A stretch of 64,000 nt of DNA from an uncultured Candidatus Peribacteria bacterium (GCA_964655935.1 CAZZNY010000001.1:214606-278605), one strand, 5' to 3'. Counted from the first letter of the stretch, positions 15,243-16,571 are shown. Numbers and translations are program-made. Notes: generated by a model from the sequence alone, not told the origin.

Positions 15243-16571
15243 TTAGATATTCAATCCTGCAATTCTTCCCATCGCCCAAGCAGACTGGAGATTAAAACCT
15301 CAGGTAACTGCATCCACATCGAGCACTTCCCCACCGAAAAATAATCCAGGAACGAGTTTTGACTGCATAGTTTTCGGATCAACTTCGGAGAGCTCAATTC
15401 ATCCGGCCGTTACGAATTCGTCTCACGGTCGACGGTTTACTAATGTGATTTTTAATTGGCCCGTAAGTATGTGTACTAGCTTCTTTCTTTCGTCTTTTGA
15501 AAAGCGAGCAGCCGTTCGTTCTCTATCAATTCATAATTCACTCATTATTACTTCGCAAATTCGCGCTGGCATCTTACTTGTGAGAAGTGTTTTTATGAGC
15601 TTATTCGGTTCAGATTCAAAAGCGATTCGAAGTTCATTATCCCACACTTGAAAATCTTTATTTGCATCAAGAGAGATTCAAATCGTAATCGGAGAATCAG
15701 GCGATATTTTCTCAAGTGCAATATGTGCAGAAAGTGCAAAAGTGGCTGGTCCAGAAATACCAAAATGCGTAAAAAGCATCGGTCAGATGACAGAGACTTC
15801 TATAGCACGTCATCCTGAATTCATTTCAGGATCCCCTGAGGTATTGTGAATTAAATGAGGGGATACTGAAACAAGTTCAGTATGACGAATACATATCAGC
15901 TTTGCATTCTGTAAAGCAATTCCAGATAAATTCTTACACCAACTCTCTTTTACTTCAAAACTATTCAAAGATGGTCCAAGTGGTGTAATCGTATGACCAA
16001 GCGCTTGTGCAAGATTATAACCATCACCAGACGAACCAGTATGAGAATATGCGTTTCATCCAGTCGCGATAATAACCCTATCGAATTCATATAAGTCTTT
16101 ATCAGTTTCAAGCAAAAAACCACTCTCAGTTTCTCAGTTTCTCAGTTTCTCTCTTCTCATTCACTTTACACTTTCATTTAATCTCAAATTCACTCATTTT
16201 TCACTGAAAATCGCCTCGAAGACCTCTACGACATCTTGTCATTTGTTCGATCGTGGAAATACTCGATTATCGCTTTGTATATATAGTGGCAAGCCATTTT
16301 GTTCAAACCATTGATAGACTTTTCGTGGACCGAAAATCTCAAAAGCGTGTTTGAGAAAATCTGCGCCTCTAATATATTTTGGAAATAATTCTTTTCTTTG
16401 TGTGATCCCCGTCGTAACATTACATCGACCACCACCAGTTAAGCCTACTTTTACACCGATTCTCGGATTTTTATCGAACAGAAAAATGTCAGAACCAGGA
16501 ATTCCTCTCTCGACTAATGTTGCGGCAGCCATCATACCAGACGCTCCTGCTCATATTATAGCTATTTTCAT
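15243..16571 (-). CDS. BaiN/HI0933-family NAD(P)/FAD-dependent oxidoreductase (442 aa) with in-frame repeat insertions
   Basis: [19 protein letters not shown]...[11 protein letters not shown]...[20 protein letters not shown]...[12 protein letters not shown]...[25 protein letters not shown]. All codons were checked. TAA at 15243-15245. Confidence 0.8.
15806..15887. repeat. GTCATCC-box composite palindromic element inside the BaiN-like CDS
   Basis: CACGTCATCCTGAA-TTCAT-TTCAGGAT, ATCCCCT...AGGGGAT, ACTGAA-ACAAG-TTCAGT-ATGACG. Confidence 0.75.
16127..16150. repeat. three tandem TCAGTTTC units inside the BaiN-like CDS (in frame)
   Basis: TCAGTTTC x3. The flanking sequence resembles the intergenic TTCTCAGTCTCTA modules at 35093 and 59302. 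Confidence 0.6.

Follow-up and report, generated by a model that had tools for sequence, protein, structure and literature searches.

An inverted, tags-outward pair of CGTC-2 REPs has very probably been inserted into the gene of an HI0933-family flavoprotein in a Gracilibacterium after its lineage split from the closest known relative, and would be translated there as a disordered loop by way of a TGA codon read as glycine. The pair lies at the tip of a β-hairpin in the barrel domain, where it would add 27 residues in the form of a surface loop to an enzyme under purifying selection, with a reading frame that passes through the TGA of the element's own tag. What is new is the host, a member of the Gracilibacteria, and the reading frame, as both the repeat superfamily and its in-frame insertion have already been described. 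Positions are those of the window, i.e., the whole 64-kb stretch of DNA that was analysed. The host gene and the parts of the element are as follows.

15243-16571, minus strand: gene P0001 for an HI0933/aminoacetone-oxidase-family FAD flavoprotein, a single ORF of 442 codons with TGA=Gly (table 25)
15806-15887, no strand: inserted element; its two CGTC-2 REP units form a heterodimer with the tags outward, and it provides residues 229-256 of the protein; absent from all orthologues aligned
15808-15836, plus strand: REP unit B, CGTCATCCTGAATTCATTTCAGGATCCCC, with an 8-bp stem and a 5-nt loop (TTCAT); on the strand of the gene its reading is GDPEMNSG-G(TGA)-R
15810-15812, minus strand: in-frame TGA codon for Gly254, derived from the element's own tag GGATGACG; a stop in the standard code, with no codon here in the insert-free relative L123
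15837-15858, no strand: spacer of 22 nt, unique, with ends that prolong the palindrome; no other contig covers it
15859-15887, minus strand: REP unit A, CGTCATACTGAACTTGTTTCAGTATCCCC, with the loop CTTGT (the commonest type) and a 10-residue reading that includes RHTELVSVS

Results

Architecture of the inserted element

The original prediction described a palindromic element of about 82 nt lying in frame in an HI0933-family ORF without a stop or frameshift, and under code 25 this is true of 15806-15887, which is read as residues 229-256. A near-perfect palindrome of 80 nt occupies 15808-15887, and the letters CA of an extended tag at 15806-15807 complete the 82-nt element. Two inverted units of about 29 nt, which follow the pattern CGTCAT-N-CTGAA-N5-TTCAG-N-ATCCCC, are separated by the 22-nt spacer; their stems are ATCCTGAA/TTCAGGAT with the loop TTCAT and ATACTGAA/TTCAGTAT with the loop CTTGT. 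On either strand, 15808-15887 folds as one long hairpin (-37 kcal/mol; z = -5.2 and -5.7), and none of 200 shuffles folded as well. Both units start with CGTCAT, an unpaired terminal CGTC tag, and both have an 8-bp stem with A-T at the first and second positions and a 5-nt loop, as is characteristic of CGTC-2. In this genome the tag is extended to (G)CACGTCAT. The tail of the unit is CCC(C) here and CCA in the family description; in the copies from other genomes, among the matches listed, T or C opens the tail in 95 %. No second copy of the whole 80-nt dimer was found, only the units of about 30 nt being recurrent, and in metagenome contigs the sequence past each unit differs between copies.

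Several other classes of element were considered and rejected for the 82 nt. ARAGORN finds no tRNA or cloverleaf, and no Rfam family reaches threshold, the only matches being generic miRNA-like hairpins far below it. An intron or intein would be larger than this element, which moreover matches no RNA family. A MITE is not indicated either, as there is no target-site duplication (the flanks, TATAG before the initial CA and AATAC after the final ACG, have no direct repeat) and no related IS with matching terminal inverted repeats was seen in the window. GTAG-tagged REP/BIME elements with their RAYT transposases and classical MITEs are short, hairpin-forming, multi-copy and non-autonomous repeats that often occur as inverted dimers. 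The element resembles them in all these respects, but it has no GTAG tag and no RAYT was seen, and it differs from MITEs in lacking target-site duplications and transposase-derived terminal inverted repeats.

Relation to CGTC-tagged REPs and Rickettsia RPEs

CGTC-tagged REPs were defined by Di Nocera, De Gregorio and Rocco (2013; BMC Genomics 14:522, PMC3733652), who surveyed them in five phyla that included no Patescibacteria. Families 1 and 2 have 8-bp stems starting with AT, and families 2 to 4 have 5-nt loops; tags may vary to TGTC or CCTC, tails are short, and dimers predominate (PMC3733652). Heterodimers have their tags outward and a spacer of 20-100 bp, and the repeats are mostly intergenic and near the 3' ends of genes, with occasional in-frame copies that are listed for many species (PMC3733652). 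One of these, a single CGTC-2 unit in Sulfurovum SUN_0512, encodes RHSELVSGS (Additional file 3 of PMC3733652); the corresponding frame of the window unit gives RHTELVSVS. On the basis of this likeness to a listed element, together with the description of stem, loop and dimer, we file the element as a CGTC-2 heterodimer. It shares with CGTC-2 the unpaired CGTC tag, the AT-starting 8-bp stem, the 5-nt loop, the short C-rich tail and the tags-outward dimer with a spacer within 20-100 bp. However, its host is a Gracilibacterium with code 25, its tail is CCC rather than CCA, its tag is extended, and its reading frame includes a TGA, unreadable for the standard-code hosts of PMC3733652.

The proposed likeness to the Rickettsia RPEs turns out to be literally apt, as the unit is a CGTC-tagged REP and this superfamily includes RPE-4 and RPE-6 (PMC3733652). 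More precisely, RPE-6 is CGTC-1 and RPE-4 is CGTC-4, and neither is CGTC-2 (PMC3733652). As PMC10969869 summarises the work of Ogata et al. (2000), RPEs are palindromic repeats located in frame in metabolic genes that are unrelated to one another, and the additional peptide they encode appears at sites that the fold can accommodate. The element here is likewise an in-frame palindromic repeat that is absent from orthologues and sits at a fold-compatible position. The classic RPE-1 of Rickettsia has about 100-150 bp and a different sequence, whereas the present element is a CGTC-2 dimer of 80 nt with units of 29 nt, in a host of another phylum with another genetic code. The further suggestion that such inserts are rare outside Rickettsia did not hold up. 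In-frame REPs are listed in many species (PMC3733652), so the phenomenon is not confined to Rickettsia, and of the 158 units from other genomes among the matches listed in our own scan, 13 are situated within a stop-free frame of 250 codons or more.

Copies in the window and in other genomes

The unit pattern GTCATNCTGAANNNNNTTCAGNATC occurs four times in the 64-kb window against 0.00 expected, and GTCATCC is found 16 times where 5.9 would be expected. The 64 kb also include some 15 more hairpins that carry a CGTCAT tag but have a different stem. Most tagged units in the window are intergenic, and the repeat is thus multi-copy and mostly intergenic, as is typical of CGTC-2. The two single CGTC-2 units are the following.

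4743-4776 (pattern match 4747-4771), minus strand: single CGTC-2 unit in an intergenic region, its end being 4 nt away from the stop of a 2810-codon ORF
23136-23170 (pattern match 23140-23164), plus strand: single CGTC-2 unit in a DEAD-box helicase gene, in frame in its low-complexity C-terminal tail

The helicase gene (22646 to about 24550, minus strand) reads its unit as GDAETSSA-G(TGA)-RAP, with G619 encoded by TGA, and a 326-nt contig covers the unit in the helicase tail with 0 differences. No insert-free relative of the helicase tail was recovered (run X6), and the 21 kb of the syntenic relative L002 contain no hairpin units. Long code-25 ORFs at 24600-24997, 25540-25692 and 26797-26850 extend upstream through CGTC units, with the extension peptides KRHSGVDWNLP, VPRNDD and SPGQARGGRTWSPRMT. 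These N-terminal extensions are probably spurious, and the starts there look like MKFSDFDL (helicase), MKNGSS or MKRW (membrane protein) and MNWTQE.

A scan of other genomes with the unit pattern, limited to one genome per species, gave at least 120 loci. The hosts among the matches listed include Sphingomonadaceae, Pedobacter, Treponema, Gastranaerophilales, Saccharibacteria, Nomurabacteria, Nitrospirota, Rickettsiales, another Gracilibacterium and others. In 157 copies from other genomes among the matches listed, C or T precedes GTC in 91 %, a Watson-Crick pair (G-C, C-G or T-A) occupies the free stem position in 95 %, and the loop is conserved as YTTRT, being mostly CTTGT, TTTAT or CTTGA. 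Tags-outward inverted dimers with variable spacers are the commonest arrangement (16 of 27 adjacent pairs in other genomes, among the matches listed). The in-frame readings found elsewhere are (R/C)HxELVSxS, V(I/M)LNLFQ(D/H)x and x(I/M)LKQVQ(D/H)D. At 2205-2303 of locus L092 and at other loci, in standard-code genomes of other phyla, a CGTC-2 unit or dimer lies in stop-free frames of 250-1250 codons; one example reads VILNLFQHP...WMLKQVQHD within a 478-codon frame.

NTS and SRM repeats and a GIY-YIG nuclease gene

Chenal et al. (2025; PMC11893778) showed that SsnA, a small GIY-YIG nuclease in the CDD family cd10448, cleaves NTS repeats when these are single-stranded DNA, and that the repeats modulate transformation. 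The same authors provide a degenerate pattern to search for Ssn-related motifs (SRM), HGTCWYN(0-2)YYVSBRHN(0-5)WNVSBRGN(0-2)RNCYNB (PMC11893778); a genome with SRM would be expected to encode an Ssn nuclease (a cd10448 GIY-YIG protein), typically flanked by the motif. Neisseria NTS/dRS3 and SRM are similar to the present repeats in having a CGTCAT-tagged hairpin followed by ATC, and the window likewise has a GIY-YIG gene that is small and stands alone. The SRM pattern fits four other units of the window, where 0.06 would be expected. However, the AT-rich CTGAA stem sets apart both units of the flavoprotein gene, which do not fit the pattern; none of the four CTGAA-type units in the window matches it, and membership of the inserted units in SRM was therefore rejected. 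Near-canonical copies of the Neisseria-type NTS are present at 25036 and 47009 (TGTCATTCCCGCGCAGGCGGGAATCCAG at 47009). They lie in the 95 %-identical copies 25031-25068 and 47004-47041 of TGTCATTCCCGCG(G/C)AGGCGGGAATCCAGG, which agree with the Neisseria NTS/dRS3 (CGTC-1) consensus except at the first base.

35806-36054, minus strand: stand-alone GIY-YIG nuclease gene P0124, 83 aa (tblastn; PF01541 1e-17), candidate partner of the CGTC/SRM repeats

P0124 has the UPF0213 proteins 1ywl and 1zg2 as its best PDB matches and has no flanking repeats, the nearest repeat being about 720 nt off and beyond another gene. It adjoins an EngB-like GTPase gene, and this pairing is kept in L002, the relative of 57 % identity, with the GIY-YIG gene at 3447-3698. 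As it stands beside the same GTPase gene in both, P0124 looks like a resident rather than a mobile gene. Among the matches listed, a GIY-YIG homologue occurs in 4 of 120 unit-bearing loci, three times within 450 nt of a unit; a link between such homologues near units in other genomes and the repeats is suggestive only.

The hairpin may instead have been kept as a functional RNA or DNA signal rather than as neutral selfish DNA, e.g., as an RNase III or other processing site, as a translational pause, or as a site for an Ssn-like GIY-YIG single-strand nuclease. We consider this unlikely. The perfectly paired stems and the -37 kcal/mol of the whole element would be in keeping with such a role, as would the stem covariation across phyla, which shows selection for the hairpin, the GIY-YIG gene in the window, and the cutting of the related NTS repeats by SsnA with its effect on transformation (PMC11893778). 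However, such selection acts on members of the repeat family at any location and is not specific to the flavoprotein gene, and the closest relative does well without the element. Neither the failure of the units to fit the published SRM pattern nor the best match of P0124 to UPF0213 proteins and its lack of flanking repeats favours a nuclease site.

The insertion and its insert-free relatives

The alignment of orthologues, which had been put forward as the check on the original prediction, bears it out: the segment is missing from all of the approximately 20 aligned orthologues (50-60 % identity), and also from L002, the syntenic closest relative in the protein database. As the segment is missing from all outgroups, a gain in the lineage of the window is the parsimonious reading.

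The most informative sequence is L123, a 2859-nt contig from a 2025 groundwater metagenome, whose gene has 94 % amino acid and 89.5 % nucleotide identity to that in the window. It skips 15798-15895 and has 17 other letters instead. Its protein reads NAKM-TVQGQP-VSVIGPM, in which the six residues TVQGQP correspond to 33 in the window. On balance the gene of the window is longer by exactly 27 codons (81 nt), and the additional sequence includes the entire palindrome. The claim that about 27 extra residues, the element being read as residues 229-256, precede a conserved motif is confirmed. About 21 nt on either side of the element have diverged from L123 beyond alignment, so the exact junctions and a clean empty site cannot be drawn.

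At the empty site (L123, 2283-2300) the loop reads AAGATGACAGTGCAATGACAACCC, with two tag-like ATGACA motifs 11 nt apart. They may have been left behind by an earlier occupant, reflect a preferred target or have arisen by chance, and ATGACA is common in the flavoprotein gene because TGA-CAA codon pairs are common.

It is also conceivable that the loop is ancestral and was lost in the relatives, or that local sequence was duplicated and inverted to form it on the spot. The diverged flanks, with their lack of clean junctions, the unique spacer of the dimer and the two ATGACA motifs, if these are tag remnants, would agree with such an origin. However, an ancestral loop would have to have been lost many times, as more than 20 orthologues at all distances are without the segment, and a local origin is at odds with a segment made of two copies of a repeat that is found elsewhere in the window and in many phyla. 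ATGACA is, moreover, frequent in this gene through its codon pairs, and we regard this explanation as very improbable.

In another loop of the same enzyme, the orthologue P0099 has a different, low-complexity insert of 27 residues (SAGSHSAGSHSAGSGSTTGSTTGSSV; alignment A1, columns 201-227).

Genetic code and integrity of the host gene

The flavoprotein matches the profiles PF03486 (1e-73), PF22780 (3e-20) and TIGR00275 (1e-112), all above cut-off, as well as the structure 2i0z (2e-60), and it has the three-domain fold of the family. The whole gene is found with 0 differences on identical contigs in independent Logan assemblies from four rock-metagenome samples, which makes an assembly artefact unlikely. 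Among RNA-seq runs, none was found to contain the gene. Comparison with the insert-free L123 gave a dN/dS of 0.09 (dS 0.44), an average over both lineages that does not isolate the time since the insertion, and by this measure the gene is under purifying selection. The notion that the gene is a decaying pseudogene, with the palindrome as one of several lesions, might draw on its break-up into short ORFs under table 11 (13 breaks, all TGA) and on the strong hairpin and the one TGA that the element brings, but it is largely refuted and quite implausible, given that all 13 TGA codons sit at glycine positions, 10 of them being TGA in L123 as well, that about 91 % of the 64-kb window is coding under code 25, that dN/dS is so low, and that the nearly invariant residues of the family are all present in the orthologue alignment.

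Structure and tolerance of the insert

The AlphaFold model of the flavoprotein has a mean pLDDT of 85. Residues 233-253 have pLDDT below 50 and form the tip of a β-hairpin between the strands 219-230 and 256-267. The HMMER alignment with the crystal structure 2i0z has the insert between residues 245 and 247 of the latter, in agreement with the surface loop that the original prediction had expected from mapping onto a structure. Foldseek gives a TM-score of 0.85 to 2i0z, and the rest of the model superposes on 2i0z, 4cnj, 2gqf and 3v76 (target-normalised TM-scores 0.79-0.87). The insert is accordingly modelled as a disordered surface loop at a β-hairpin tip in the barrel domain.

A tandem repeat in the same gene

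A second peculiarity had been pointed out in the same gene, namely tandem TCAGTTTC units within sequence that resembles intergenic modules.

16124-16151, no strand: tandem (TCTCAGTT) x3.5, period 8, 100 % matches, encoding KLRNGETES

The tandem is real, but it does not belong to the REP insertion event. The insert-free L123 has it too, with one substitution and no length variation, and the tandem is therefore older than the REP insertion. It encodes part of EKLRNGETESG, adds seven residues (a 7-column gap in 19 orthologues) and sits at another β-hairpin turn, with pLDDT 64 in the AlphaFold model. Its likeness to the intergenic modules comes down to an 11-nt match, TCTCAGTYTCT, of which the window has three other exact copies, in AT-rich periodic regions upstream of genes.

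Modules of this AT-rich kind, with a period of 7-8 nt (TTCTTAA, TCTCAGTYTCT), are seen in upstream regions at 32872, 35093 and 59240-59330, where the tagged end of a CGTC unit is frequently some tens of nt away. In some metagenome contigs a TCAGTTTC tandem lies 4 nt from a CGTC tag. The periodic modules and the CGTC units may together constitute a composite repeat.

Discussion

The element presumably reached the flavoprotein gene by the transposition-like spread of a non-autonomous hairpin repeat. The mobilising enzyme was possibly a small GIY-YIG single-strand nuclease, and nucleases of this type may spread such repeats. Two separate insertions of single units, or a local duplication with inversion, are both possible routes to the dimer. 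Given the net gain of 81 nt and a frame that contains neither TAA nor TAG, the element would be translated as 27 extra residues, a conclusion based on the open frame and on selection acting on the whole gene. The resulting loop would be neutral rather than useful to the enzyme.

The frame in use is readable only because the organism decodes UGA as glycine. TGA is present in both the tag (ATGACG) and the CTGAA stem of the repeat, and in the consensus unit it closes three of the six frames under the standard code and none under code 25. For the 82-nt dimer, one of the six frames is open under code 11 and four are open under code 25, the frame used by the flavoprotein being among those opened only by code 25. 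Both sites of intragenic units in the window, in the flavoprotein gene and in the tail of the DEAD-box helicase, use the same TGA-containing frame, which only code 25 opens. These two events, which have no statistical weight, suggest that recoding relaxes the constraint on the translation of repeats. It is a tentative and somewhat doubtful proposal that CGTC-tagged repeats lose their main obstacle to translation through the reassignment of UGA, once it means glycine instead of stop. Through such a reassignment, a sequence that would otherwise truncate the protein would turn into a harmless extra peptide.

Literature searches for REPs or other palindromic repeats in Gracilibacteria and the CPR returned only CRISPR-related papers, and we found no published report of in-frame hairpin repeats in Gracilibacteria or Patescibacteria. 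The flavoprotein gene would be a clean case of a selfish hairpin repeat that remodels the loop of an enzyme, for which an empty-site allele is available. The finding also bears on annotation, as gene callers that apply the wrong code split such genes exactly at the repeat, and lineage-specific protein inserts in such genomes may in many cases stem from repeat DNA instead of being functional additions. If the effect of recoding were true genome-wide, Gracilibacteria and Absconditabacteria would carry more repeat-encoded protein loops than their standard-code relatives, and the genes of these bacteria would be further 'code-locked'.
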